A stretch of 45,821 nucleotides of DNA, taken from assembly GCA_035303885.1 (NCBI GenBank), contig DATGRE010000191.1:1-45821 (forward strand). The letters are read 5' to 3'. The translations under genes were made by a program, and so were the position numbers. Of this stretch, positions 29,364 to 45,598 are shown in pieces. The DNA comes from Zeimonas sp. (GTDB taxonomy: Bacteria > Pseudomonadota > Gammaproteobacteria > Burkholderiales > Burkholderiaceae_E). The notes under the pieces were generated by a model. The model was given only the letters and a program-made list of their open reading frames with translations, did no database searches and was not told the origin of the DNA. Positions within the stretch are counted from its first letter, which is position 1. Every line of letters starts with the position of its first letter.

Positions 29364-30809
29364 TCAATCGAACCAGACCGGCTTGCTCGCACCCATTGGC
29401 ATCGGTGGTCTGGCCCAGTACGCGATGGTCTCGCTGTATTGCACGAGTGGCCGTGGGTGACGCAGGACACCGAACACCGAGTCCGTTTCCTGAAATGCAC
29501 TTTCCGGGACCGAAGGCAAGTCCCGGATCCCCAGCCGACCCTCTGGCCACATCTCCTGCGGAAGACGTCCGAGCGACTGGACCCACATCGAGCTTTGCGT
29601 CAGCGAAGTCGAAACGTGATACGAGCCGCCCTCCTTGCTTCGGCGTAGCAGCGCAGCGACGACCCCTGCGGCGGCGAGATAGGCGGTGAGGTAGTCGTTC
29701 AACGTGAAAGTGGGGGCGAGTCTCGGCTCCTCCGGCGAACCTTCGTCGATTGCGAGACCCGATACGGCTTGCCCAAGCGGTTCGTACCCTCCGCGATCAG
29801 CCCACGGCCCCTCGTCTCCGTAGCAGCTCAACGAAACGTAGACGACGCCGGGGCAAAGGTCCGCCACTTCGCTGGGCGAGAACCCGCGTCTCGCGAGTGC
29901 CCCCGGACGCCACGACTGAATGAAGACGTCGGCATCGCGAATCAGCGCACGAAGCCGTTCGACGTCCGAAGGCAAGTCGAGGTCGATGAACGCGGTCCGC
30001 TTCCCGAAGCCTGTATCGACGTCGATCAGATGTCCATCGGGCTGGTGGGGCGCAGAGACGTGAAGTACCGAAGCGCCCTGCTCCGCCAGCACTCGGGAGG
30101 TGATCGGTCCCGCAAGCACGTGGGCCATGTCGACCACCCGCAAGCCGCTCAGCGGCCGATCGGCTCCCGGCGCGAATGGAACCGGCTCCGCATCGTTGAT
30201 CCTGGTGACCAGGACAGGCGGCCTGGCCGCGAGGAGACGCCCTTGTGGATGCAAGCGCCACTCTTCCTGCGTGCGTGCGATGCAACCGAACAGTCGAGCC
30301 TCGGCAAGCGCCTGCTCCAACTCGTCCGAGTTCCATTTCGCGACCGCATTGGCAACCGACTCGTGCCCGGTGGTCGCCCCCAGGAAGCGGTGCACGTCGA
30401 GACAGTGCTGGACATAGTTCGCGGTATAGAGCAGATAGAACCTTCGATCGTCCTTCGTCGCGAAGAAATTAGGTCCTTGCCCGTCCCAGCGCGTAAAGGG
30501 AAGAGGATGGCCGTTCTGCCGAATGTGAAGGAAAGTGCACAGCCCGGGATAAGCAGCGTTGCGGACATCGACGCAAGCACGCTGCTCGCGCCCGGTGCGC
30601 GTCTTCCAGATCTCGATGATGCCCAATGCTTGCGCAGCGATAGCGGCGGCACTCGCCGCGCCCAGGCGATGTCGGCTCGGAACCACCGGGTCGGCGCCTT
30701 CGAACGTCACGCACGAGGCATCCGCGTGGCCCAGCCCGACAAAATTTCGCGCCTCGTCGAAAGCCAGGCGAACGTGTCGGTCCTGATCCCCTCCGATTCC
30801 GCCCTCCAT
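29364..30809 (-). CDS. Class III (CaiB/BaiF) CoA-transferase, long form
   Basis: PLSGLRVVDMAHVLAGP, GKR, ADVFIQSWRPGAL, SCYGDEGPWADRGGY, LNDYLTAY; GGAGAG RBS before ATG 30809. Confidence 0.9.
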   Translation of the reverse strand: MEGGIGGDQDRHVRLAFDEARNFVGLGHADASCVTFEGADPVVPSRHRLGAASAAAIAAQALGIIEIWKTRTGREQRACVDVRNAAYPGLCTFLHIRQNGHPLPFTRWDGQGPNFFATKDDRRFYLLYTANYVQHCLDVHRFLGATTGHESVANAVAKWNSDELEQALAEARLFGCIARTQEEWRLHPQGRLLAARPPVLVTRINDAEPVPFAPGADRPLSGLRVVDMAHVLAGPITSRVLAEQGASVLHVSAPHQPDGHLIDVDTGFGKRTAFIDLDLPSDVERLRALIRDADVFIQSWRPGALARRGFSPSEVADLCPGVVYVSLSCYGDEGPWADRGGYEPLGQAVSGLAIDEGSPEEPRLAPTFTLNDYLTAYLAAAGVVAALLRRSKEGGSYHVSTSLTQSSMWVQSLGRLPQEMWPEGRLGIRDLPSVPESAFQETDSVFGVLRHPRPLVQYSETIAYWARPPMPMGASKPVWFD

Positions 30810-30837
30810 ACCGCACTCTCCGTACCAGTCGACGCAG

Positions 30838-31881
30838 TCAGCCAACCGGGGGGATCCCCACCTCATCGATCAACTTGCGATAGAGGGAGTATTCGCGGCG
30901 CATCAGCGCATCGAGTTCGTCGCCCGCGACGACGCCGGAAAGGCCGATCTTCTTCATGCGCTCGCGCCCCTCGTCGTCGGCCCGATAGGCGGCGTTCAGC
31001 GTCGAGATCAGCTGCTCTACGACCGGGCGCGGCGTCCCCGCCGGGGCGAACAAGCCGAAGGTCGAGCGTGGCGGCTCCCATCCCTGAACCCCCGCTTCCC
31101 TCAAGGTGGGTACTTCCGGCAACTCGTCCACACGTTCGGCACGAAGCACGGCAAGCCCTCGAAGCCGACCGTCACGAATCAGCGGCGCCGCCTGAGAGAT
31201 AGAGGCGAACAGACAGTCGACATGCCCGCCGAGCATGTCGGCGGTCGCCTGCGCCGAACTGCGGTAGGCGACATGACCCAGCTTCACACCGGTCTCGCGC
31301 ATGAACATCTCTGCGTTCATGTGAGGTGTCGAGCCGGTCCCCGCACTCGCAAAGGTGATCCGTCCAGGGCCTTCCTTGGCTGCGTCGATCAACTGCTGGA
31401 GAGTCTGATAAGGCGACTGTGAACTGACGACGAACACGGTGCCCGCAGAACCGAGGGACCAGACCGGAATGAAATCCTTGAGCACATCGTATTTCACCGA
31501 TTTGTACAGGAAACCGGTCGTCACCAGAGCACTCGTGAACTGGGTCAATAGGGTGTGGCCGTCGGCGGCTGCCCGCAGTACCGCAGCGGTCCCGGTCGTA
31601 CCGCCGCCTCCGGCGAGGTTCTCGACGACGACGGGCTGACCGAACCCCGCGTGCAGCCGCTCCGCCATGTACCGCCCCGCGATGTCGACGGGGGAACCAG
31701 CGCCGTACGGGCAGATGATCCTGATCGTTCGCGTCGGATATGCCGACTTCGCATACGCCAACCCGGTCCAAGCCGGAAGCGCAAAAGCAGGCATCGATCC
31801 GAGCACACGCAGCACTCTCCGTCGTTCCGCTCGGGTAGCAGGCCGTAGCGAGTGGTGCAGGCCATTGGTCGAGCAGCGCAT
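30838..31881 (-). CDS. Bug/TctC tripartite tricarboxylate transporter solute-binding protein
   Basis: Tat-like signal RRRVLR...AYA, YPTRTIRIICPYGAG, VENLAGGGG, ADGHTL, SAGTGSTPH, PEVPTLRE. Confidence 0.93.
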   Translation of the reverse strand: MRCSTNGLHHSLRPATRAERRRVLRVLGSMPAFALPAWTGLAYAKSAYPTRTIRIICPYGAGSPVDIAGRYMAERLHAGFGQPVVVENLAGGGGTTGTAAVLRAAADGHTLLTQFTSALVTTGFLYKSVKYDVLKDFIPVWSLGSAGTVFVVSSQSPYQTLQQLIDAAKEGPGRITFASAGTGSTPHMNAEMFMRETGVKLGHVAYRSSAQATADMLGGHVDCLFASISQAAPLIRDGRLRGLAVLRAERVDELPEVPTLREAGVQGWEPPRSTFGLFAPAGTPRPVVEQLISTLNAAYRADDEGRERMKKIGLSGVVAGDELDALMRREYSLYRKLIDEVGIPPVG

Positions 31882-31971
31882 GAGTCCCCCTCCTGTGTTC
31901 GCTTCGGTTGGCGTAACGGGGGGAGTTTGCTCGACGCTACCGAAAGCCGGAAGATGCAAAATTTACCCGAT

Positions 31972-31990
31972 CAATAGCCACTAGTTATCA
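31972..31990. promoter_or_regulatory. LysR-type T-N11-A box in the divergent bug/lysR promoter
   Basis: ATAG-CCACTAG-TTAT dyad in an AT-rich stretch just before the lysR ATG. Confidence 0.55.
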
Positions 31991-31996
31991 CATGCC

Positions 31997-32968
31997 ATGA
32001 AGCTCCACCAACTGCGCGACTTCGTCGCCGTGTCGCACGCTGGCGGAATTCGAGCGGCCGCGCGTGAGCTCGGACTGACTCAGCCATCACTCACCAAAAG
32101 CATCCGTCAGCTGGAGACATCGCTCGGCGTTCCGCTGTTCGAGCGCACCGGGCGCGGTCTGCATCGCACGGAATTCGGCGATGCACTGTTCGTTCGTGCG
32201 AGCGCCGTCCTGGCCGACCTGCAGCGCGCAACGGATGAGATCCGGCAACTCCGTGGCATCTGGCAGGGACGGGTCACGGTATCGATGAGCGGCACTAGCC
32301 TGCTCAATCTCCTACCGGGAGCACTCGAGGTGTTTCGACGTCGCCATCCCGATGTGCGCGTGCGCATCATCGAACGGCCACTCGACCAGGCACTCGAAGA
32401 GCTCCGCGGCGGCGTCCTCGACTTCGCCGTTCTTCCCGAGCCCCCAGCCACCATCCGGGACGAGTTTCGTTTCGATCCCCTACTGACCGACCGCTACGCC
32501 GTGGTGGGGCGAGCGGCGCACCCCTTGAGCAGCGCCACGTCGATCGTGGAGTTGCTCGACACGGAATGGGTCGTTACCCGCCAAGGTGGCGCAAGTGCCG
32601 CCGAGTTCGAGCGCTATTTCGCCGCGCTGCGGCTGACGGCTCCGAGTGTCTCGATCCAATGCGAAACCGTCCTCGGCGTTCTGTCCCTCCTCGCGCATAC
32701 CGATCTGCTAGCCTTGCTGCCGTCGCGCTGGCTGCATACCAGGATCACGCGCAATGTCTCGGCCGAGATCCATGTCGCCGAGCACGTCCAGACTACGCCT
32801 ATCGGCATCATTCAGCGCCGCTCGGCGCCCTTGTCCCCCGCCGCAGAAGCCTTCGCGGCCGCGCTCGTAGTGGAGTCCCGAGAAGTCGAGCGTGCATCCC
32901 CCGTCACGACTCCTCCTCGGCGAACGCCTCGTCGCGCTTCTTCGCCACCGCGGGCAGGAAGACGATGA
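31997..32968 (+). CDS. LysR-family transcriptional regulator
   Basis: MKLHQLRDF...AARELGLTQPSLTKSIRQLETSLGVPLFER. Confidence 0.96.
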   Translation: MKLHQLRDFVAVSHAGGIRAAARELGLTQPSLTKSIRQLETSLGVPLFERTGRGLHRTEFGDALFVRASAVLADLQRATDEIRQLRGIWQGRVTVSMSGTSLLNLLPGALEVFRRRHPDVRVRIIERPLDQALEELRGGVLDFAVLPEPPATIRDEFRFDPLLTDRYAVVGRAAHPLSSATSIVELLDTEWVVTRQGGASAAEFERYFAALRLTAPSVSIQCETVLGVLSLLAHTDLLALLPSRWLHTRITRNVSAEIHVAEHVQTTPIGIIQRRSAPLSPAAEAFAAALVVESREVERASPVTTPPRRTPRRASSPPRAGRR

Positions 32969-35045: not shown

Positions 35046-36266
35046 CTACCGCATCCGCCACAGCAAGGCGATTCCCAGCCCGGCGAACGCGGCGGCCACG
35101 CCGAACGTCGCCGCATAGCTTTGCAGCTGCGAGTAGATGGCCGCGAACAGCGACGGCCCGATCAGCACCCCGCCGAACGTGAAGAACAGCGCGCCGCCGG
35201 TCGCCGTGCTCGCCTCGCCCGCCGGCGCGAGCCGCGCCACCTCCGCCAGGAACACGCCGTTCCACCCGATCGCCGTCACCCCCATCGACACGAACACGGC
35301 GGCCGTGGCGAACGCGCTCCAGCGCTCGTCGACCTGCGTGGCCGCGAGCGTCGCGAGCAGCATCAACGCTCCGAGCACGAGCAGCGTCGTTCGACTTGCC
35401 CGCAACCGGTCGGCGATCCACCCCCAGGCGATGCGCCCGACGGCGCCGGAGAACTGCACTGCCGACAGCAGCACGCCCGCCTCGACCAGCGTGTAGCGCG
35501 CCTCCTGCACGAGAAACGTCACCGCGAAGGTCATCAGGCACAGCTGCACGCCGGCGAAGCACAGCGCCATCAGCGACAGATGGCGAAGGCCCCGGTGCGA
35601 CCACACCAGGACGATTCCGCTCAGCAGGCCCGCAGGCGAACCCGAAGCCTGCCGGGCATCCCGCCGCACGCGTCCGCTGCGGTCGCGCTCGGCCGCGCAC
35701 CGATCGTCGTCCCAGAGCGAGCGCACCGGCTGCAGCAGCGCGAGCATCGCGAGCGCGCAGACGAGGACGACGAGCAGCGCCGCGCGCCAGCCATAGGCGT
35801 GCGCGACCGGCGGCGCAACGAGCGCCGCGGCCATGCCGCCGAGCGGAACGCCCGTCTGCTTCAGCGAGAAGATCAGGTTGCGGCTCGACGCCGGGGTGAA
35901 GCGCGCCAGCAGATGCGCGCCCGCCGGATTCGACGACCCGTAGCCGAAGCCCAGCAGCATCGACGCGACGGCGAGCGCAGCCAGGTGCGGCACCGTCGCG
36001 AGCAGCATCGCGGCGGCGACGAGCGCGAGCGCGACTTGCGTCGTGCGGCAAGCACCCAGCCGCGCGACGACGTTGCCGCCCACCGCCGCGCTCGCCATCG
36101 CACCCGCGTAGACGATGCTCACCTGGTAGCCGATCGTCGACGCGTCGACCGCGAGCACCTGCGCGAGCTCGGGCGCGAGCACCGGCAGCGTCAGCGCGGC
36201 CATCGAGACGATCGTCTGCGCGACGAGCGTCGCGCCGACGACGATCGGCACGGGCGGAGTCTGCAT
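35046..36266 (-). CDS. MFS transporter
   Basis: 406 aa hydrophobic protein; SLKQTGVPLGG, GRIAWGWIADR, IGWNGV. Confidence 0.92.
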   Translation of the reverse strand: MQTPPVPIVVGATLVAQTIVSMAALTLPVLAPELAQVLAVDASTIGYQVSIVYAGAMASAAVGGNVVARLGACRTTQVALALVAAAMLLATVPHLAALAVASMLLGFGYGSSNPAGAHLLARFTPASSRNLIFSLKQTGVPLGGMAAALVAPPVAHAYGWRAALLVVLVCALAMLALLQPVRSLWDDDRCAAERDRSGRVRRDARQASGSPAGLLSGIVLVWSHRGLRHLSLMALCFAGVQLCLMTFAVTFLVQEARYTLVEAGVLLSAVQFSGAVGRIAWGWIADRLRASRTTLLVLGALMLLATLAATQVDERWSAFATAAVFVSMGVTAIGWNGVFLAEVARLAPAGEASTATGGALFFTFGGVLIGPSLFAAIYSQLQSYAATFGVAAAFAGLGIALLWRMR

Positions 36267-36271
36267 CGCCT

Positions 36272-37591
36272 TCAGCGCACGTTGCCGACGAGCATCAACG
36301 CCAGTTGCGGGAAGACTGCGACCAGCGCGAGTACCGCCAACATGATCAGCACGTAAGGCACGGCGCCCCGGATGATGCGCTCGAGCGGAACGTCGCGCAC
36401 GACGCCCTGCACGACGAACAGGTTCAGGCCGACCGGCGGCGTGATCAGCGCCATCTCCATGTTGATCGTCAGGATGATGCCAAACCAGATCAGGTCCCAG
36501 CCGAAGACCGAGACGATCGGGATCAGGATCGGCGCCGTGATCACGATGATCGACAGCGTCTCCATGAAGCAGCCGAGGAAGACCAGCAGCAGGTTGATCG
36601 CGATGAAGATCAGCCACGGCGCAACGTCGAGCTCGGCCACCGTGCGCGAGATGACCGGCGCGACCTGCGTCGTCGTCATCGCGTAGCCGAAGACCATCGC
36701 GCCGGCGATGATCATCAGCACCATCACGCTGCCGCGCGCCGCATCGTGCAGGATGACGAGCATCTTGCGAAGCGTGAGCTCGCGGTAGAGGACGCCCGAG
36801 AGCAGCAGGCTCGCCAACGTGCCGAGCGCGGCCGCTTCGGTGGGCGTGGCAAGCCCCTGGTAGATCGAGCCGAGGATGATCCAGATCAGCACCGCCATCG
36901 GCACCAGGTGCCGCAGCGCGGCGAGGCGCTCGCGCACGGTGGGCGCCGCCGCCATGGCCGCATGCCCGGCAACGGTGGCCGCACGGTGTGCGCGCAGCGC
37001 CGCGCGCACCTGGTACGCCATGAACGCGGCGGTCATGATCAACCCGGGGAGGATCCCGGCGATGAAGAGCTTGCCGATCGACTGCTCCGCGACGATGCCG
37101 TAGACGATCATCGGGATGCTCGGCGGAATCAGGATGCCGAGCGTGCCGCCGGCGGCCACCGCCCCGGTGGCGTCGCTGTCGCGATAGCCGAAGCGGCGCA
37201 TCTCGTCGACCGAGAAGCGGCCGATCGCTCCCGCGGTCGCGACGCTCGAGCCCGAGACCGCGGCCATCACCGCGCATGCGAGCGTCGTCGCGACCATCAG
37301 TCCGCCGGGCACGCCGTGCAGCAACGTCGCGAGCGACGCATACAGGCGCGACCCCATCCCCGACGCCGAGATGATCGCGCCCATCAGGATGAACAGCGGA
37401 ACCGCCGTCAGCGTGAAGCTCGTGATCGAGCCCCACAGCGTCGGCGCGATGAGGCCGAGCGCGTCGATGCCGCCACCCACCAGGAGCAGCGTGCCGATCG
37501 CGACACCGAAGAGGCTGAATGCAACGGGCACGCCGATCGCGAGGCACGCGATCAGCGCGGCGAACATCGCCAGACCGAGCCAGATCTCCAT
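36272..37591 (-). CDS. TRAP transporter large permease (DctM family)
   Basis: AVPLFILMG, SGSSVAT, GTLGILIPPSI, ATPTEAA, ITPPVGLNLFV. Confidence 0.96.
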   Translation of the reverse strand: MEIWLGLAMFAALIACLAIGVPVAFSLFGVAIGTLLLVGGGIDALGLIAPTLWGSITSFTLTAVPLFILMGAIISASGMGSRLYASLATLLHGVPGGLMVATTLACAVMAAVSGSSVATAGAIGRFSVDEMRRFGYRDSDATGAVAAGGTLGILIPPSIPMIVYGIVAEQSIGKLFIAGILPGLIMTAAFMAYQVRAALRAHRAATVAGHAAMAAAPTVRERLAALRHLVPMAVLIWIILGSIYQGLATPTEAAALGTLASLLLSGVLYRELTLRKMLVILHDAARGSVMVLMIIAGAMVFGYAMTTTQVAPVISRTVAELDVAPWLIFIAINLLLVFLGCFMETLSIIVITAPILIPIVSVFGWDLIWFGIILTINMEMALITPPVGLNLFVVQGVVRDVPLERIIRGAVPYVLIMLAVLALVAVFPQLALMLVGNVR

Positions 37592-37609
37592 TCGATTCGA
37601 AGGTCGGGT

Positions 37610-38137
37610 TCAGGCGCTGTCGCGCCTGCGGTTCACCATCTCCGCCAGATGCACGACGAGCAGCCAGAGCATGCCCGCGGCGAAGAACGAATAGGGAATC
37701 CACAGCGCGACCTGGAAGAGCCCCCAGGACGTCTCGCCGCTGTCGTAGGCGTCCCACCAGAACTGCGCACTGAGCCACGCGAGCAGCCCGACCACGACGA
37801 GCACGACGACGTCGGCGAGCCAGGCCAGCACGCGGCGAACGCCGGGGGAGACGCGCGTGACGACGAGATCGACGCCGACGTGCGCGCCTTCGGCCAGCGC
37901 ATAGGCCGCGCCGCCGAAGGCGATGAGGCCCATCAGGTATTCCGAGACGTCGTTGACCCAGCCGGTCGTCGACGCGAAGAAGGTGCGGGCGACGACCTCG
38001 TAGGTGACGAGCAGCGCGATCGCGAATGCGGCGACGCCGACCAGCAGCCCGGAGAATCGCGTGACCGCCGCGATCCACGCGAAGCCCGCCGGGGGGCGGC
38101 GCGCCGGCGCCGCCCCGTTGCCTTCGCGCGCGCTCAC
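37610..38137 (-). CDS. TRAP transporter small permease (DctQ family)
   Basis: YEVVART, WVNDVSEY, GAHVGVD; four TM segments. Confidence 0.93.
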   Translation of the reverse strand: MSAREGNGAAPARRPPAGFAWIAAVTRFSGLLVGVAAFAIALLVTYEVVARTFFASTTGWVNDVSEYLMGLIAFGGAAYALAEGAHVGVDLVVTRVSPGVRRVLAWLADVVVLVVVGLLAWLSAQFWWDAYDSGETSWGLFQVALWIPYSFFAAGMLWLLVVHLAEMVNRRRDSA

Positions 38138-39150
38138 CGGCCCGCGTCGACGCCGGCGTTCTTCAGCAGCTCCTCACCGCCGGGAACGTCGGCCTTGAAC
38201 TTCTCGAAGCTGTACTTGCGAAACCAGTCCTGCCACTTCTTCCACGACGCTTCGGTCATCTTCTCGACCTGGACGCCGTTCTTCGCGAACAGCCCGGCGA
38301 CGCGCCTGTCCTCGTTCTTCGCCCCTTCCAGCGCCGCCTGCTCGAGGCTCTCGCCGACCTCGACGAGGATCTTCTGCTGCTCGGGCGTCAGCTTGTTCCA
38401 CGTCTTCATGCTGATCGCGATCGGCTCGATCGTGAAGTAGACGCTGTAGTCCTCGGGCGAGTTGTAGAACTTCGCCACCTCGTACATGCGATACGCGCCG
38501 AAGGACCCCGACGACGTCCACATTCCGTCGAGCAGCCCGAGCTGCATCGCGTTGTAGTTCTCGGACGACGGCATCGAGACGGTGGTCGCGCCCGCCTGCT
38601 GCAACGCGTACTCCATGAACTTGCCGGCCGCGCGCATCTTCAATCCCGAGACGTCCTGCGGCTCGTGGATCGGCTTGCCCGTCGAGGCGACGCCGCCCGA
38701 GATCTGGATCCACGACAGCGTCTTGAAGCCGTACTCCTGCGCCTTCCGTTCGAGCTGCTTCCACGCCTCGGACTTGCGGAAGGCGAAGACGTCGTCGTGG
38801 CTGCTCCAGAGACCGGGCAGCAGCACCAGGTTCATCTGCGGGATCGCACCGGCGGCGTAGATGTACGGATAGATCGCGAGATCGACCGTGCCGTTGCGCA
38901 GCGCCGTATGTGTCGCGTTCGCCTTCACGAGCGACTGGGCCGGAAAGATCGAGATCTTGATCTCTCCGTTCGTGCGCTTCTCGACCTCCTGCGCGAACTT
39001 GATGCCGGTGGCGATGACGTAGTCGGACTCGTCCTGCGGCCACTGGTGCGCCATCTTCAGGTTCAGCGTCTGCGCGGCGGCGGCGCCACCGAGCGTGAGG
39101 GCCGCACCCGCAACCAGCGCGGTCCCGAACTTCGCGAACGTGGTTCTCAT
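38134..39150 (-). CDS. TRAP solute-binding protein (DctP family)
   Basis: Signal peptide, FAQEVEKRTNGEIKI, GLKMR (conserved carboxylate-binding Arg), YNAMQLGLLDG; GGAGG RBS. Confidence 0.95.
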   Translation of the reverse strand: MRTTFAKFGTALVAGAALTLGGAAAAQTLNLKMAHQWPQDESDYVIATGIKFAQEVEKRTNGEIKISIFPAQSLVKANATHTALRNGTVDLAIYPYIYAAGAIPQMNLVLLPGLWSSHDDVFAFRKSEAWKQLERKAQEYGFKTLSWIQISGGVASTGKPIHEPQDVSGLKMRAAGKFMEYALQQAGATTVSMPSSENYNAMQLGLLDGMWTSSGSFGAYRMYEVAKFYNSPEDYSVYFTIEPIAISMKTWNKLTPEQQKILVEVGESLEQAALEGAKNEDRRVAGLFAKNGVQVEKMTEASWKKWQDWFRKYSFEKFKADVPGGEELLKNAGVDAGR

Positions 39151-39178: not shown

Positions 39179-40081
39179 TCAGTTCCGGCGATCGGTGCCT
39201 CGCGACATCGTTGCGAGAATTTCTTCGTACAGCGCCGCCGGCTCGTCGTCGAAGCGCTCCTCGGGCCATTGCGCGAGCGTCGCCGCCAGCTTCCGGTACG
39301 CCAGCCGCTGCAACCGATAGCGGTTGAAGCGGCGCCGGCGTGCAGGCGCCGGGCGGCGTTCGAGGGCCTGGTGCAGCGCCTCGTCGATCCGCGCGTCGAG
39401 CTCGAGCAGGCCTTCGTCATCGTCCGCCTTCACGAGCACGATGTGCGGCACGGCGACGCCGCGACGCTGCGACAGCGTCGTCTTCAGCTCGAGCGCCGTC
39501 CGGCGGGCTCCGGCGAGATCGGCCTTGTTGATCACGATGAGGTCGGCGGTCTCGAGGATTCCGGCCTTCATCGCCTGGATCGAGTCGCCCAGGCCCGGCA
39601 TCAGCAGCAGCACCTCGACGTCGACGAGCTCGCGCACGCCGAACTCGGCCTGGCCCACGCCCACCGTCTCGACGACGATCTCGGCGAAGCCGAACGAATC
39701 GAGCGTCGAAAGGACCTCCGGAAGGTTGTCGCCGAGCCCGTCGCGCGTCTGGCCGCTCGGCATCGAACGCACGTACACGCGTGGATCCTCGGCGAGCGCC
39801 TCCATGCGGATGCGGTCGCCGAGCAGCGAGCCGGCGCTGTCCGGGCTCGTCGGGTCGATGGCGACGATCGCCAGCGGCGAGGCCTTCTCCACCCGCACGT
39901 GGGCGAGCCGTGCGATCAGCGAGCTCTTGCCGACGCCCGGCGCGCCGGTGATGCCGATGCGCGGCGCCGGTGGCCCGTCGTGGACCGGCTCGCGCAGCAG
40001 CTCGTCGACGTCCATTCGCGCGACGCGCGTGAGCGCGCGGCTCACGGCCCGCCGGTCGAAGGGCGAGGCCGACGACGTCAC
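39179..40081 (-). CDS. meaB: MeaB/ArgK G-protein chaperone for the B12 mutase
   Basis: GITGAPGVGKSS, AIDPTSP..GSLLGDRIRM, ETVGVGQ, GDSIQAMKAGILE, NKAD. Confidence 0.95.
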   Translation of the reverse strand: MTSSASPFDRRAVSRALTRVARMDVDELLREPVHDGPPAPRIGITGAPGVGKSSLIARLAHVRVEKASPLAIVAIDPTSPDSAGSLLGDRIRMEALAEDPRVYVRSMPSGQTRDGLGDNLPEVLSTLDSFGFAEIVVETVGVGQAEFGVRELVDVEVLLLMPGLGDSIQAMKAGILETADLIVINKADLAGARRTALELKTTLSQRRGVAVPHIVLVKADDDEGLLELDARIDEALHQALERRPAPARRRRFNRYRLQRLAYRKLAATLAQWPEERFDDEPAALYEEILATMSRGTDRRN

Positions 40082-41202
40082 CCGGTCTTCCCCAGCAGGG
40101 CAGGCCCGTGCTCGCCGAGCAGCGGCGGCGCACGAAAATCGTCCTGCGCGTCGGAGAACTTCACCGGGTTGCCGACGACGCGAAGCATCTCTCCGTCGAG
40201 AGGAATCTCCGCAACCATCCCTCGCGCCGCCGTCTGCTCGCTCGCCAGCGCCGTCTCGAGCGTCTCGACACCGGCGGCGACGATGCCCAGCGGCGCGAGC
40301 CGCGCGACCCATCGCTCGGTCGTTTCGGTCGCGAGGACCTCGCCGATCGAGTGCAGGACGAGCTCGCGATTCTCGCGCCGCGCGACCATCGTCGCGTAGC
40401 GCTCGTCGTCGATCCACTCGGGGCGCCCGATCTCGCGGCAGAACGTGCGCCAGAAATCGTCGTGCGTGATGAACAACGTCAGCCAGCCGTCGGCCGTACG
40501 GAAGATCTGCGCCGGGACAATGTACGGATGCGCCGACGCCGGATAGCGCTCGGCACGCTCGCCGGCGTTCAACCATGCGCCCGCGAGATAGTTCAGTTGC
40601 GAGAGCATGACGTCGTACATCGCGATGTCGACCTGGCCGCCCTCGCCCTGCACGAGCTTCGCCAGCAAGCCCACCGCTCCCATGATGCCGGCGGAGTTGT
40701 CCACCGCCGAGTACCCGGTCTTCGTCGGCGGCCCGGACGGATCGCCGGTCAGCGCCATGACGCCGGTCAACGCCTGGATCACGTAGTCGTAGGCGGGCCG
40801 CTCGGCGAAGGGACTGTCCAGCCCGTAGCCGGTGAGCGCGACGCAGACGATCTTCGGATTGAACGCCTTGAGCCGCTCGTAGGTGAGGCCGAGCTTGCGG
40901 ATCGCCTTGGGACGCAGGTTCGTGACAAGGCCGTGCGCGTCGCGCACCAGCACGCCGAGCTGCGCGCGGCCTTCGTCCGATGCGAGGTCGAGCACGACGC
41001 TGCGCTTGCCGCGGTTCAGGCTCGCGAAATACGCGTTGTGAGGCCCGACCTTGTGCGGGCTGATGCTGCGCGCGATGTCCCCGGCCGGCGGCTCGACCTT
41101 GATCACGTCGGCACCCAGGTCGGCAAGCAGCATCCCGCAGTACGGGCCCATCAGCATGTGCCCGACCTCGATGATGCGCTTGCCGCGCAGCGGCAGAGTC
41201 AC
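40078..41202 (-). CDS. Class III (CaiB/BaiF) CoA-transferase
   Basis: LADLGADVIKVEPP.GD, NRGKRS, AYDYVIQA, catalytic Asp region SAVDNSAG, PPLLGEH. Confidence 0.95.
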   Translation of the reverse strand: MTLPLRGKRIIEVGHMLMGPYCGMLLADLGADVIKVEPPAGDIARSISPHKVGPHNAYFASLNRGKRSVVLDLASDEGRAQLGVLVRDAHGLVTNLRPKAIRKLGLTYERLKAFNPKIVCVALTGYGLDSPFAERPAYDYVIQALTGVMALTGDPSGPPTKTGYSAVDNSAGIMGAVGLLAKLVQGEGGQVDIAMYDVMLSQLNYLAGAWLNAGERAERYPASAHPYIVPAQIFRTADGWLTLFITHDDFWRTFCREIGRPEWIDDERYATMVARRENRELVLHSIGEVLATETTERWVARLAPLGIVAAGVETLETALASEQTAARGMVAEIPLDGEMLRVVGNPVKFSDAQDDFRAPPLLGEHGPALLGKTG

Positions 41203-41615
41203 GACAGCATCCTCGCGATCGTCGCGATGACGTCGGCGAGCGGGATCTCGCTCGTGAACACGCCGCGCACGCCCCGTTCGCGCAGTCTCTCCTGGTCGGG
41301 CGCGGGAATCGTGCCGCCCACGAACACCGGGATGTCGTCCGCCTGCAGCGAGCGCAACTGCTCGAGCGTATCGTCCACCAGCTCGTTGTGGCTGCCGGAG
41401 AGGATCGACAGCCCGACGGCGTCGACGTCCTCGTCGACGGCGACGCGCGCGATGTAGCCGGGCGTCTTGCGCAGCCCCGTGTAGATGACGTCGGCGCCGG
41501 CGTCGCGCAACGCGAGCGCGACGACCTTCGCGCCGACGTCGTGGCCGTCCAGGCCGGGCTTGGCGACGAGAATGCGCTTGCCGCGCAGCGGCGCCGTTTC
41601 GGTGGTTGGCTTCAT
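41199..41615 (-). CDS. Acyl-CoA mutase small (cobalamin-binding) subunit
   Basis: DxHxxG motif GLDGHDVGAK, GLSILSG, VFVGGTIP. Confidence 0.96.
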   Translation of the reverse strand: MKPTTETAPLRGKRILVAKPGLDGHDVGAKVVALALRDAGADVIYTGLRKTPGYIARVAVDEDVDAVGLSILSGSHNELVDDTLEQLRSLQADDIPVFVGGTIPAPDQERLRERGVRGVFTSEIPLADVIATIARMLS

Positions 41616-43237
41616 AGTCGCACCGGTTCCTCGAACTCGCCCCACTGCTTCTTCAGCCGCGCGACCATCTCGCCCACCGTGGCGTAGGCGTGGCAGCACT
41701 CGATCAGATAGGGCATCAGGTTCTCGTCGTCGACGGCGGCCGCCTGCTCGAGCCGGTCGAGCGCGCGCTCGACCTCGGCGGCATCGCGCCGGTCGCGGAT
41801 CGCATCGAATTTCTCGAGCACGCGCCGGCTCGCCTGCGGGTCGACGCTGAACACCTCCTCGGGCGCCGCCGTCTGGTCTTCGTGGCGAAAGCAGTTCAAC
41901 CCGACGACGGGCAGCTTGCCGCTGTCGATCTGCCGCTTGCGCTCGTGTGCGCGATGCGCGATGCGCAGCTGCAGCCAGCCGTCCTCGATCGCCTTCACCG
42001 CGCCGCCGTACGCCTCGACCTCGGCCATCAGCGATTCGATCCGCTTCTCCATCTCGTCGGTGAGGTGCTCGGTGAAGTAGCCGCCGCCCAGCGGATCGAC
42101 CGTGCGCGCGATTCCGCTCTCGTAGGCGACGATCTGCTGCGTGCGCAGCGCGAGCTCCGCGGAGAATTCGGTGGGAATCTGGAACGGCTCGTCGAGCGCG
42201 CAGGTGAAGATCGACTGCGCGCCGCTCAGCACGGCCGCCATCGTCTCGATCGCCACCCGCACGACGTTGTTGTACGGCTGCGGGGCGACCAGCGACGAGC
42301 CGCCGCAGACGACGCCGAAGCGGAACATCTGCGCCTTCGGATCGGTGACCCCGTAGCGCTCCTTCAGCAGCCGCGCCCAGATCCGGCGGCCGGCCCGGAA
42401 CTTCGCGACCTCCTCGAAGAGGTCCATGTGCACGTAGAAGAAGAACGACAGGCGCTTGGCGAAGCGGTCCGCGTCGCCGCCGCGTCGGATCAGCTCGTCG
42501 ACGTAGGCCAGCCCGTTGGCCAGCGTGTACGCCATCTCCTCGGCCGCCGTGCAGCCGGCATCGCGCATGTGGGCGCCGGCGATCGAGATCGTGTTGAAGC
42601 GCGGCGTCTCGCGGTTGCCGAACAGGATCGTGTCGGAGATCAGCCGCATCGAGGGGCGCACCGGAAAGATCCACGTTCCGCGCGCGACGTATTCCTTCAG
42701 GATGTCGTTCTGGATCGTCCCCGTGAGCTTCTCGCGCGGCACGCCGGTGCGGTCGGCGCACGCGATGTACATCGCGTAGAGGATCGCCGCGGTGCCGTTG
42801 ATCGTGAACGACGTCGAGATGCGCGACAGATCGATCCCGCGGAACAGGATCTCCATCTCGGAGAGATTCGACAGCGACACGCCGACCTTGCCGATCTCGG
42901 GACGCGCCATCGGGTCGGTGGGGTCGAGCCCGCACTGCGTCGGCAGGTCGAGCGCGACCGACAGCCCCGTCTGGCCACGCTCGAGCAGGAAGCGGTAGCG
43001 CTCGTTCGATTCCTCGGCGGTGCCGAAGCCCGAATACTGGCGCATCGTCCAGAGCCGGCCGCGGTAGCCGTCGGGAAAGATGCCGCGCGTGAACGGGAAC
43101 TCGCCCGGCCGGCCCGGATCCTGGAAGGGGAAGTTCTGCGGGTCGACGACGACCGGCACCTCGATGCCGGAGCGCACGGCGGTGCCGACGCTCGGCACGA
43201 CCGGTCGCGTTTCCGCTTCGGTGCTTCGATGGTTCAT
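41612..43237 (-). CDS. AdoCbl-dependent acyl-CoA mutase large (substrate-binding) subunit with atypical active site
   Basis: PGEFPFTRG, WTMRQYSGF, GLSVALDLPTQ, GTIQNDILKEYVAR, EEVAKFRAGRRIW, DPLGG. Confidence 0.96.
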   Translation of the reverse strand: MNHRSTEAETRPVVPSVGTAVRSGIEVPVVVDPQNFPFQDPGRPGEFPFTRGIFPDGYRGRLWTMRQYSGFGTAEESNERYRFLLERGQTGLSVALDLPTQCGLDPTDPMARPEIGKVGVSLSNLSEMEILFRGIDLSRISTSFTINGTAAILYAMYIACADRTGVPREKLTGTIQNDILKEYVARGTWIFPVRPSMRLISDTILFGNRETPRFNTISIAGAHMRDAGCTAAEEMAYTLANGLAYVDELIRRGGDADRFAKRLSFFFYVHMDLFEEVAKFRAGRRIWARLLKERYGVTDPKAQMFRFGVVCGGSSLVAPQPYNNVVRVAIETMAAVLSGAQSIFTCALDEPFQIPTEFSAELALRTQQIVAYESGIARTVDPLGGGYFTEHLTDEMEKRIESLMAEVEAYGGAVKAIEDGWLQLRIAHRAHERKRQIDSGKLPVVGLNCFRHEDQTAAPEEVFSVDPQASRRVLEKFDAIRDRRDAAEVERALDRLEQAAAVDDENLMPYLIECCHAYATVGEMVARLKKQWGEFEEPVRL

Positions 43238-44019
43238 GCTGATCCTCTGCTTCGCGACAGGAAGCGGTCGCTCGCCTGCCAGTGATCGGGGTGGATCCAG
43301 GTGGCGACGAAGGCCTCGCGCTCGCGCTGCTCGCGCTGCGCCCGCGTGTGCATGAGGCGATCACCCAGCGCGATCGCCTTGAACGCACGCAGCACCTGCG
43401 GCGCCTGCGCGCGCATCGGCGCGAGGAATCGCTCGACGCAGGCGTCGAGCGATTCGCCGTCGGCGGCGACGTCGTCGACCAGTCCGATCGCCTGCGCCTT
43501 CTCGGCCGGCATCGTCTCGGCGCCGACCAGGATCGAGAGCGCGCGCCGCCCGCCGACGAGCGCGACGAGATCCGCCCCGCCCCCGAAGCCCGTGCAGATG
43601 TTCAGGCGCCCCTGCACGAAGCCGATCGCCGCGTGCCGGGCCGCGACGCGGAAATCGCAGGCGACGGCGAGCTCGGCGCCTCCGCCCAGCGCGACGCCGT
43701 TCAGCGCGGCGACGACCGGCAGCGGGAACTCGCGCACCGCGCGCAGCGCCTCGTTCGCGTACGACCAGAGCCGCTCGGCGTCGTCGGTGCTGCGCAGCTT
43801 GTCGAACTCCTTCAGGTCACCGCCGGCAGCGAAGCTCTTCTCGCCCGCGCCGGTGACGACGGCCGCGCGCAGCCCGCGATCGTCGGCCGATTCGGTGAAC
43901 GCGCGGCGCAGCTCGCCGAGCACCTCGGTGCTCAGCGGGTTGCGCTGCGCCGGCCGGTCGATCGTCACGCGCAGGACGTCGTCGAGACGTTCGACCCTCA
44001 GGTACCGGTATTCGCTCAT
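43234..44019 (-). CDS. Crotonase-superfamily protein, probably an acyl-malonyl-CoA decarboxylase rather than a hydratase
   Basis: FAAGGDL, ALGGGAELAVACDFR; the second hydratase Glu is replaced by Gln (GFVQ). Confidence 0.88.
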   Translation of the reverse strand: MSEYRYLRVERLDDVLRVTIDRPAQRNPLSTEVLGELRRAFTESADDRGLRAAVVTGAGEKSFAAGGDLKEFDKLRSTDDAERLWSYANEALRAVREFPLPVVAALNGVALGGGAELAVACDFRVAARHAAIGFVQGRLNICTGFGGGADLVALVGGRRALSILVGAETMPAEKAQAIGLVDDVAADGESLDACVERFLAPMRAQAPQVLRAFKAIALGDRLMHTRAQREQREREAFVATWIHPDHWQASDRFLSRSRGSA

Positions 44020-44759
44020 TGCCGGAAGACCTCCTCGATTCGTCGGCGCGCACCGACGAGACGCGCCGCCAGTTCGTCGATGCGCTTCTCCATCCGGTGC
44101 GACGGACCGGCCACCGCGAGCCCGAAGACCTCGTCGCGGATCGACAGCGCGACGGCGAGCGCGGTGACGTCCTCGACGTTCTCGCCACGGGTCATGAACC
44201 AGCCGCGCTGCCGGCTTGCCTCGAGATCGGCGCGCAGCCGCTTCGCATCGACGATCGTGCGCCCGGTGACGGCGTCCAGCGGATGCGCACCGAGCCAGTC
44301 GGCGAGCGCGTCGTCGGACAGCGCGCCGAGCATCACCTTGCCGATCGAGCTCGAATGCAGCGGCTTGTATTCGCCGGGCTTCGCGGTGTAGCGCACGGTG
44401 TGCGGCCCTTCGACGACGTCGAGATAGAGGACCGCCTCGCCCTGCCGCTTGCCCAGGATCACGGTCTCGCGCGTCTCGTCGCGCAGACCCTGCAGCTGGG
44501 GCTCGATCCGCTCGAGGAACGGATCGTTGCGCACGACGCTCTGCGCGAGATCGAGCAGGCGCCGCGTCGGATAGAAGTCCTTGCGCCGGCTCACCGCGTA
44601 GAGGTAGCCGCGCCCGACGAGGGTCCGCACCAGACCGTGACAGCTGCTCACGGGAACGTTCATGCGCTGCGCGAGCTCGCTCAGCACGAGCGGCTTGCCA
44701 CTCGCCTCGAAGGCTTCGAACAGGTCGAGGGTGCGTTCGGCGGACGGTACAGGAGGCAT
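44016..44759 (-). CDS. IclR-family transcriptional regulator
   Basis: SAERTLDLFEAF HTH, LRDETRETVILG, PLHSSSIGKVML, LAVAGPSHR. Confidence 0.95.
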   Translation of the reverse strand: MPPVPSAERTLDLFEAFEASGKPLVLSELAQRMNVPVSSCHGLVRTLVGRGYLYAVSRRKDFYPTRRLLDLAQSVVRNDPFLERIEPQLQGLRDETRETVILGKRQGEAVLYLDVVEGPHTVRYTAKPGEYKPLHSSSIGKVMLGALSDDALADWLGAHPLDAVTGRTIVDAKRLRADLEASRQRGWFMTRGENVEDVTALAVALSIRDEVFGLAVAGPSHRMEKRIDELAARLVGARRRIEEVFRQ

Positions 44760-44989: not shown

Positions 44990-45598
44990 TCAGAGCCGGT
45001 CGGCGTACTCGCGAAGAAACGTCAGCGTGCGCCGCGGCGAGAACGACGGCAGCGCGCATCCGGGCGCGAGAATGAAGCCTTCGCGCCCGGCCTGCGCAAC
45101 CGCATCGTCGATCTGATGCGCGAGCTTCGGCAGCGACAGGTCGGGAAACGCGCTTTCGTCGATGCCGCCCATCAGGCAGGCATCGAAGCGCCGGCGTAAC
45201 TCGGCGAGCGTCGGGTTGTCGGGCGAACGGTCCGACACGCTGAGCGACTCGCAGACGGTCTCGATCGCGCGCAGCGGCTCCGCGCGATGGCGCCACAGGT
45301 TCTCCTGCTGGTCGCGGCCGATGTTGCGCACGATCGACTGGTACGGATCGAAGCCGGTCTCGAGCAACGGGAACTCGGGGCCCATCGCGACGCGCAGCCG
45401 GTGCAGGCAGTCGAGCTGCTGCGCGAACGCCGGATGATCGAGCGGCACGACCTCGAACGCCCGCAGCGACGACGCCTCCTCGACGTCGCGCAACCCTTCG
45501 GGCACCGGGTAGCGATAGTCGGACATGACCTTGGCGAGATCCCAGCGATAGGTCGTCAGGAAGCGTTCGTGCAGGCGCGCCGTCTCCTCGCCCGCCAC
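44990..45598 (-). pseudogene. Truncated, internally deleted uroporphyrinogen decarboxylase (URO-D/MtaA)-family gene
   Basis: WDLAKVM, ETGFDP, CLMGGID, FILAPGC are family-like motifs, but the ORF is only about 202 aa. The N-terminus and the central barrel segment appear to be missing. Confidence 0.6.

Follow-up and report, generated by a model that had tools for sequence, protein, structure and literature searches.

A crotonase of the ECHDC1 clade encoded beside a B12-dependent acyl-CoA mutase is a likely substituted-malonyl-CoA decarboxylase

The 45,821-nucleotide stretch analysed here (the window; contig DATGRE010000191.1 of the Zeimonas sp. assembly GCA_035303885.1) encodes on its minus strand a crotonase of 261 residues (P0001, positions 43234..44019) that, judged by profile, conservation and trees, belongs to the clade of the animal protein ECHDC1 and is likely to be a biotin-independent, cofactor-free decarboxylase of substituted malonyl-coenzyme A (CoA) esters, coupled to a co-encoded B12-dependent mutase. 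ECHDC1 itself is ethylmalonyl-CoA decarboxylase (EC 4.1.1.94). A first reading of the letters alone, called here the sequence-only reading, had compared the protein with decarboxylases of the ECHDC1 type. This resemblance held as a shared clade and a shared signature, but the bacterial family forms a separate subfamily with residues of its own (H243, H246, W247, D150 and R76).

The gene starts at the ATG at position 44019 (minus strand, as all features of the operon), with a ribosome-binding site, GAGGAGG, placed 10 nucleotides before it (44030..44036). Glu116 (GAG, 43672..43674), in the segment GGGAEL, is the first catalytic glutamate and aligns with E113 of ScpB, E109 of PaaF and E111 of CaiD (all from Escherichia coli), while Gln136 (CAG, 43612..43614), in GFVQ, replaces the second glutamate of hydratases and aligns with E129 of PaaF and E131 of CaiD. 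The codons and these alignments agree with the sequence-only reading, whose quoted motifs were all found in place in the translation of 43234-44019, among them APQVLRAFK (residues 206–214) and EREAFVATWIHPDH (residues 233–246). The latter runs into a C-terminal motif, W241-x-H243-x-D245-H246-W247 (43279..43299), defined by conservation, alignment and the trimer prediction described below. Among 119 close, non-identical homologues (P0003-P0121) position 136 is Gln in 115, His in 4 and Glu in none; R76, E116, R211, K214 and W241 are invariant in all 119, and H246 and W247 are each kept in 118. The AGGD and GGG oxyanion-hole segments are invariant in the family as well. The E116/Q136 pattern is neither chance nor an assembly error: it holds across these homologues, and a 2,689-base contig from an independent DNA run covers the entire gene and agrees at the codons of these residues. 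The gene matches Pfam ECH_1 (140.8 bits), and none of the 25 NCBIfam models listed for it passes its cut-off, all 25 bearing hydratase-type names; the expectation that automated annotation would call the protein a hydratase was thus borne out.

Canonical enoyl-CoA hydratases use two catalytic glutamates (PMC13689101). The first of them (Glu144 in the rat enzyme) is present in the crotonase as E116, whereas the second (rat Glu164) is Q136, with Glu in 0/119 relatives, and Gln136 rules out a canonical two-Glu hydratase. With rat enoyl-CoA hydratase, PaaF and CaiD the crotonase shares the fold, the oxyanion-hole motifs, the first glutamate and a predicted homotrimer, but it differs from them in the glutamine, in a TG[F/W]GGG.DL loop where they have PG.GG.QR, and in the C-terminal W-x-H-x-D-H-W motif. 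Escherichia coli ScpB (YgfG) is also a crotonase with the first glutamate only. In ScpB, His66 and Tyr140 are regarded as functional residues beside Glu113; the equivalent residues are G67 and T143 in the crotonase, and the two proteins are only 23% identical. These differences, together with the topology test given below (p 0.0005), reject an identity with ScpB.

The relation to ECHDC1 was examined with a set of 61 non-human animal proteins, reached by profile search via a Daphnia protein and called ECHDC1 or ethylmalonyl-CoA decarboxylase by their sources. All 61 have E116, Gln or His at 136, K214, E233 and W241, and 60 of them have Trp at position 145; the invertebrate copies even carry FVQG. 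The broad marks of the clade (first-site Glu, Gln/His136, W241, K214 and E233) are all present in the crotonase, along with the fold, the GGGAEL..DFR segments and F237. In a sample of 12 two-Glu crotonases, by contrast, the commonest residues include neither Q/H136 nor W241. An ECHDC1 profile placed the crotonase first of the 22 crotonase hits of its genome (152.6 bits; runner-up 104.3), and gave PaaF 96.4 and ScpB 36.7 bits. As a lead only, the top ESM Atlas cluster for the protein is automatically named ethylmalonyl-CoA decarboxylase (0.97).

Phylogenetic trees, whose outgroups are a sample of crotonases and not every family, agree with this. A FastTree analysis of 178 rows nests ECHDC1 in a broad bacterial group that carries Q/H136 and W241 and includes the crotonase family (support 0.98). 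With IQ-TREE, the crotonase family, related bacterial proteins and ECHDC1 form a 40-row clade in a 68-row tree (100/96, the bootstrap not having fully settled), and a clade joining the crotonase family and ECHDC1 appears at 100/99 in a 31-row tree. The crotonase family is a branch of its own (100/98). On the 31-row tree the approximately unbiased (AU) test rejected the union of the crotonase family with ScpB (p 0.0005) and with all other crotonases (p 0.026). A sister pairing with ECHDC1 was not rejected (p 0.24), but the free trees do not recover it. Placement by profile and phylogeny, which the sequence-only reading had suggested, therefore groups the crotonase with ECHDC1, apart from ScpB and from hydratases. 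On these sequence grounds it is a member of the ECHDC1 clade in a sibling subfamily, and orthology to ECHDC1 is not claimed. Elsewhere in the clade, distant members from Bacillota (L036-L038) lie upstream of a biotin-dependent acyl-CoA carboxylase, as a repair role would predict, and L036 (34% identity) retains FVQG, the Trp and the His. The clade domain also occurs in fusions (P0272, P0274, P0275 and P0284, some of which may be gene-calling artefacts), with IclR, thymidylate kinase, a lariat debranching enzyme (Daphnia) and a branched-chain aminotransferase (mite) as partners.

The AlphaFold model of the crotonase (mean predicted local distance difference test, pLDDT, 93) superposes on solved crotonases with Foldseek template-modelling (TM) scores of 0.8-0.9, reaching 0.90 with 5z7r, to which the VIA match has a Z score of 32.4 and a root-mean-square deviation of 2.0 Å over 254 residues. 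Fold and oxyanion-hole segments thus place it in the crotonase superfamily. In sequence, profile and fold searches of the PDB, all the matches listed were hydratase-type crotonases at 35-40% identity or less; no ECHDC1 or ScpB entry was among them, which leaves a relationship to either compatible with the searches. A homotrimer was predicted with a score of 0.94, against 0.00 for the best of three controls, and with pLDDT of at least 93, the runs agreeing in at least 96% of the contacts; the score mark used is reached by 20/30 proteins solved as same-chain pairs and by 1/23 solved as single chains. Crotonase trimers are well known, so the prediction counts as a likeness only. In it, residues 237-241 pack against residues 81 and 141-142 of the neighbour, and residues 245-250 are also interfacial, in a region expected to form an acyl pocket. 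W241, which aligns with Tyr258 of E. coli MenB, is predicted by the model to cover the acyl pocket of the neighbouring subunit; in MenB, it is the opposing subunit that contributes Tyr258 to the active site (PMC3637252).

Of the enzyme genes in this minus-strand run the crotonase comes first, right after a gene for an IclR-family regulator (44016..44759) whose stop overlaps the crotonase start (ATGA). Downstream, library matches identify the large subunit of an acyl-CoA mutase (41612..43237, also by motif alignment), its small, B12-binding subunit (41199..41615), a family III CoA-transferase whose best solved relatives are dicarboxylate CoA-transferases (40078..41202), a MeaB-type mutase chaperone GTPase (39179..40081), the TRAP transporter subunits DctP, DctQ and DctM (36272..39150) and an MFS transporter that ends the operon (35046..36272). 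The first six open reading frames, from IclR to MeaB, overlap by 4 bases at every junction, which suggests translational coupling. Neighbour surveys found in the conserved core neither a dehydrogenase nor a thiolase that could make or consume an enoyl-CoA, and no epimerase gene; nor did they find a further conserved catabolic gene that would name the substrate. A promoter scan found nothing. Contigs from compost RNA libraries cover parts of the operon including the crotonase gene, with DNA carry-over as a possible source. Samples from sludge, soil, leachate, bioreactors and digesters contain near-identical DNA, and the closest relatives are Burkholderiales genomes from metagenomes.

The large subunit of the mutase retains the catalytic H223 and a carboxylate clamp, Y68 and R186, which we take to correspond to Y89 and R207 of methylmalonyl-CoA mutase; the Tyr/Arg pair is kept in 26/26 related copies and sets the enzyme apart from isobutyryl- and hydroxyisobutyryl-CoA mutases. 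The product should therefore be a malonyl-type CoA ester, and since mutases acting on dicarboxylate acyl-CoAs convert succinyl-type esters to malonyl-type ones and back, a decarboxylase is the natural partner. The pocket, however, has been rebuilt: the motifs GYH, H-x-QTSGW (HCQTSGW) and HTN of methylmalonyl-CoA mutase are replaced by GAH, GVVCGGS and FTC (A222, G308-V-V-C311 and C346), the first two being the same in 26/26 copies and the third reading FTA in 6, and the protein falls below the PRK09426 cut-off. Fewer large side chains in this pocket suggest a bulkier substituent, and ethylmalonyl-CoA is for this reason not indicated as the natural substrate.

Two surveys of gene neighbourhoods, whose locus sets overlap and whose related members are not independent, link the two enzymes. 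Among 35 genome loci with crotonase relatives at 46% identity or more, drawn from Beta-, Alpha-, Gamma- and Deltaproteobacteria and other groups, the cassette mutase lies just downstream in 27 (one further locus is cut by a contig end). From the mutase side, 42 metagenome loci were reduced to 32 informative ones after setting aside 3 with other mutase types and 7 without upstream DNA, and the crotonase is upstream in 29/32, some copies being partial at contig edges. The cassette is rare: the crotonase was found in 1/400 other genomes of the order and the mutase in 1/400 of the phylum, and among 100 relatives the crotonase is present in 15 and the mutase in 11, every mutase genome also having the crotonase.

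The gene has also been kept where the mutase is gone. In four genomes of the same genus (G797, G803, G813 and G814, 88-98% complete) the block from the mutase to the TRAP genes is absent from the locus; G814 retains IclR, crotonase and MFS, and the other three the crotonase alone. Each of the four orphan genes is intact, and the 14 signature residues checked are present in every one. The ratio of non-synonymous to synonymous substitution rates (dN/dS) is 0.08-0.31 in 30 pairs with an orphan and 0.14-0.32 in 15 cassette pairs, pairwise values that cannot date the loss and that partly reflect time spent in the cassette if the loss is recent; by this measure the orphans appear to be under purifying selection. 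G814 is nearest to the cassette-bearing G799 and G813 to the cassette-bearing G802, so the mutase block was lost on at least three occasions within the genus. Four marine alphaproteobacterial relatives of the cassette-bearing L025 likewise keep the crotonase without the mutase, and the six orphan genomes outside the genus have a canonical ScpA-like mutase. Repeated retention after mutase loss suggests a use apart from the mutase that fits an ECHDC1-like repair function, and a stand-alone clean-up role on stray alkylmalonyl-CoAs is likely in addition. The sequence-only reading had proposed a biotin-independent decarboxylase that pulls the mutase equilibrium forward; the tie to a carboxylate-binding B12 mutase stands, but the pull is probably not the whole story in view of this retention. 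The proposal that the orphans serve an iaa-like mutase was found unsupported, as such a mutase occurs in 4/4 orphan genomes but also in 2/5 without the crotonase.

From the sequence, fold, clade, gene context and retention observed above we infer the reaction, the residue roles, the direction and the substrate class as follows. A substituted succinate would enter through the TRAP and MFS transporters and receive CoA from the family III CoA-transferase, at the carboxyl adjacent to its substituent. The B12 mutase would rearrange the resulting substituted succinyl-CoA to a substituted malonyl-CoA, from which the crotonase would release CO2 irreversibly to give a branched or bulky acyl-CoA for ordinary pathways of the beta-oxidation type. 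In this scenario, based on the chemistry of the crotonase family, the backbone NH groups of G67 and G113 would stabilize the thioester enolate formed after CO2 loss, E116 would protonate it, and binding of the carboxylate would fall to Q136 and to the W241/H246 motif contributed by the neighbouring subunit. The scpA-argK-scpB-scpC operon similarly brings together a mutase, a MeaB-type GTPase, a decarboxylase and a CoA-transferase; here the mutase is split and has a rebuilt pocket and the CoA-transferase belongs to family III, and the two operons look like convergent designs. A second likeness is the IaaL-IaaGH-IaaF system of Aromatoleum aromaticum, which comprises a CoA-transferase, a split mutase for a bulky substituted succinyl-CoA and a decarboxylating step, but IaaF is an oxidative, flavin-dependent decarboxylase (PMC8360864).

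Several observations weigh against this assignment. The crotonase is 24-31% identical to ECHDC1 but 28-37% identical to the 12 two-Glu crotonases (which were picked from its own top hits), its profile-profile score is 316 with ECHDC1 versus 391 with hydratases, and the ECHDC1 profile gives 37 two-Glu proteins of a representative set scores as high as 147.6 bits. Support for the clade falls below 80% when columns 134-147 and the residues beyond 200 are removed, so that the grouping rests on the signature itself. Positions 246, 150 and 76 are H, D and R in the crotonase family and N, R and mostly S in ECHDC1, and positions 243, 247 and 65 are H, W and A in the crotonase and G, L and S in ECHDC1; the ECHDC1-specific CSG[GS]D, R150 and WGGPAN read AAGGD, D150 and WIHPDH. 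Proven function is limited to animal ECHDC1, one long branch of the clade. ECHDC1 differs from the operonic crotonase in being described as a cytosolic repair enzyme (PMC6717113). Nor is the mutase an obligatory partner: the crotonase occurs without it in 7/35 loci and 4/15 genomes, and 3/32 mutase loci (L108, L109 and L112) have IclR directly before the mutase and no crotonase, with no replacement decarboxylase among the neighbours scanned in L108 and L112. Stereochemistry is a further point. Mutases give the (R)-isomer, and the cassette has no epimerase, the best Mce-like match of the genome scoring 62.8 bits against a cut-off of 115. ECHDC1 reportedly uses (S)-isomers as substrates (PMC8780949), and benzylmalonyl-CoA racemises slowly, with a half-life of 4.5 h (PMC8360864). 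The crotonase would need to accept the isomer made by the mutase, as the epimerase-free scp operon implies for ScpB.

The lack of an epimerase also invites the proposal that the protein is itself a malonyl-CoA-type epimerase, in which E116 and H246 would form a two-base pair that interconverts the (R) and (S) forms for the mutase in place of the missing Mce. H246, nearly invariant in the family and Asn in ECHDC1, fits such a role, and a biotin carboxylase in the same operon in L009 and L010 could feed the mutase in the opposite direction. The L009 carboxylase, however, belongs to the methylcrotonyl-CoA type, whose members do not produce malonyl-CoA, and that of L010 is 68% like the one in L099; the pathway would be left without an exit step and the only characterised member of the clade is a decarboxylase. 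We know of no crotonase-fold malonyl-CoA epimerase, and this function is very unlikely. It is also quite unlikely that the protein hydrates a dicarboxylic enoyl-CoA, or forms one by dehydration, with one Glu and with the substrate carboxylate replacing the lost acid. One-Glu hydratases do exist (ThnL and AtuE; PMC13689101), overall similarity and all the top PDB and fold matches listed point to hydratases, and in L009 and L010 the gene occupies a place where liuC is often found, beside a methylcrotonyl-CoA carboxylase. In ThnL, however, the second Glu is retained and the first lost (PMC13689101), the reverse of the pattern seen here, for which reason the ThnL/AtuE type was rejected; the AU test separates the family from hydratases, no dehydrogenase or thiolase stands in the conserved core, and top PDB matches need not be true kin, no ECHDC1 entry being among those listed.

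Two further rivals concern the use of the enzyme and its chemistry. A decarboxylase chiefly for metabolite repair or for the entry of substituted malonates, competing with the mutase and not following it, would explain why the gene stays intact where the mutase block was lost, both within the genus and among marine Alphaproteobacteria. Stray methylmalonyl-CoA would be a dead end in this genome and in 10 congeners, since searches of them found no ScpA-like methylmalonyl-CoA mutase, and the position of the distant Bacillota genes upstream of a carboxylase points the same way. Translational coupling and the 29/32 co-location seen from the mutase side argue for partnership instead, the six orphan genomes outside the genus possess the canonical mutase, and the losses may be recent, with dN/dS partly mirroring cassette time; repair or entry as the chief role is accordingly improbable to a high degree. 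Still less credible is a hydrolase of the CoA thioester or of a C-C bond, in which the conserved H243-x-D245-H246 could activate water. Reactions of this kind are known in the crotonase superfamily (PMC1431709), but the CoA-transferase of the operon argues for conserving the thioester and the trees place the protein with ECHDC1.

Within the preferred decarboxylase assignment, some loci hint at a substrate. Isovaleryl-CoA dehydrogenase and methylcrotonyl-CoA carboxylase genes follow the cassette in L099, and in L009 and L010 a methylcrotonyl-CoA carboxylase lies immediately upstream of the crotonase; isovalerate-pathway genes thus adjoin the cassette or the crotonase in 3/78 loci screened, in two unrelated lineages, and this genome carries both sets of genes elsewhere. 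By the proposed route 2,2-dimethylsuccinate would give isovaleryl-CoA, but methylsuccinate, leading to butyryl-CoA, or other alkyl or aryl succinates are as likely. It is a bold and rather unlikely extension that the cassette is a three-enzyme B12 route dismantling a quaternary carbon (2,2-dimethylsuccinate to isopropylmalonyl-CoA to isovaleryl-CoA, into the leucine pathway), with a crotonase from the clade that gave rise to animal ECHDC1 and that already doubles as a repair enzyme where the mutase was lost. Possible substrate feeders are MmgE/PrpD-family genes near the cassette in L005, L097 and L099 and, in L098 and L100, a fused hydantoinase/oxoprolinase gene that immediately precedes the crotonase.

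The reaction type and the operon logic are already known; the subfamily and its pairing with this mutase are apparently undescribed, as searches of the open literature listed no account of a native bacterial ECHDC1-like enzyme, a cassette of this kind or a dimethylsuccinate mutase. If the assignment is right, a large bacterial clade labelled 'enoyl-CoA hydratase' in databases would consist of malonyl-CoA-type decarboxylases akin to animal ECHDC1 and would place this repair enzyme in a bacterial setting. With ScpB and IaaF, the cassette would make three ways to finish a mutase pathway, and it would point to a branched dicarboxylate consumed in sludge, in soil and in the sea. A decarboxylase of bulky malonyl-CoAs would be useful for polyester and polyketide engineering, for which mouse ECHDC1 is currently borrowed (PMC8780949).

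The genome encodes five acyl-CoA mutases (contigs C5, C65, C299 and C350 of G000, and the window, C191): an Hcm-like enzyme, IcmF, an iaa-like enzyme, the cassette type and an odd one with TQRQLIG and VVGQH motifs that lies beside MeaB and a CoA ligase. The iaa-like copy is in G000:C299:1-6883, with genes for a hydantoinase, an acyl-CoA dehydrogenase, small and large mutase subunits and molybdenum hydroxylase subunits, an order that presumably resembles the iaa cluster of anaerobic indoleacetate degradation, and it also occurs in 7/10 congeners tested. The cassette mutase is 46% identical to this copy and differs in the pocket, so that an IaaGH identity was rejected. A further divergent mutase is placed about 7-8 kb upstream of the crotonase in L196 (G814:C1:56421-57971) and in L001:2-1414. 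It has a QRMTAG or RMARG motif, seems to lack the His of the GYH site and is about 31-33% identical to the others. In the window, a 202-residue open reading frame just upstream of IclR (44990-45598, minus strand) weakly matches uroporphyrinogen decarboxylase (E 7e-4) and is possibly truncated or decayed. At 29364-32968, a second family III CoA-transferase-like gene (500 residues), a TctC receptor gene and a divergent LysR gene are inserted between chemotaxis genes and tctAB.

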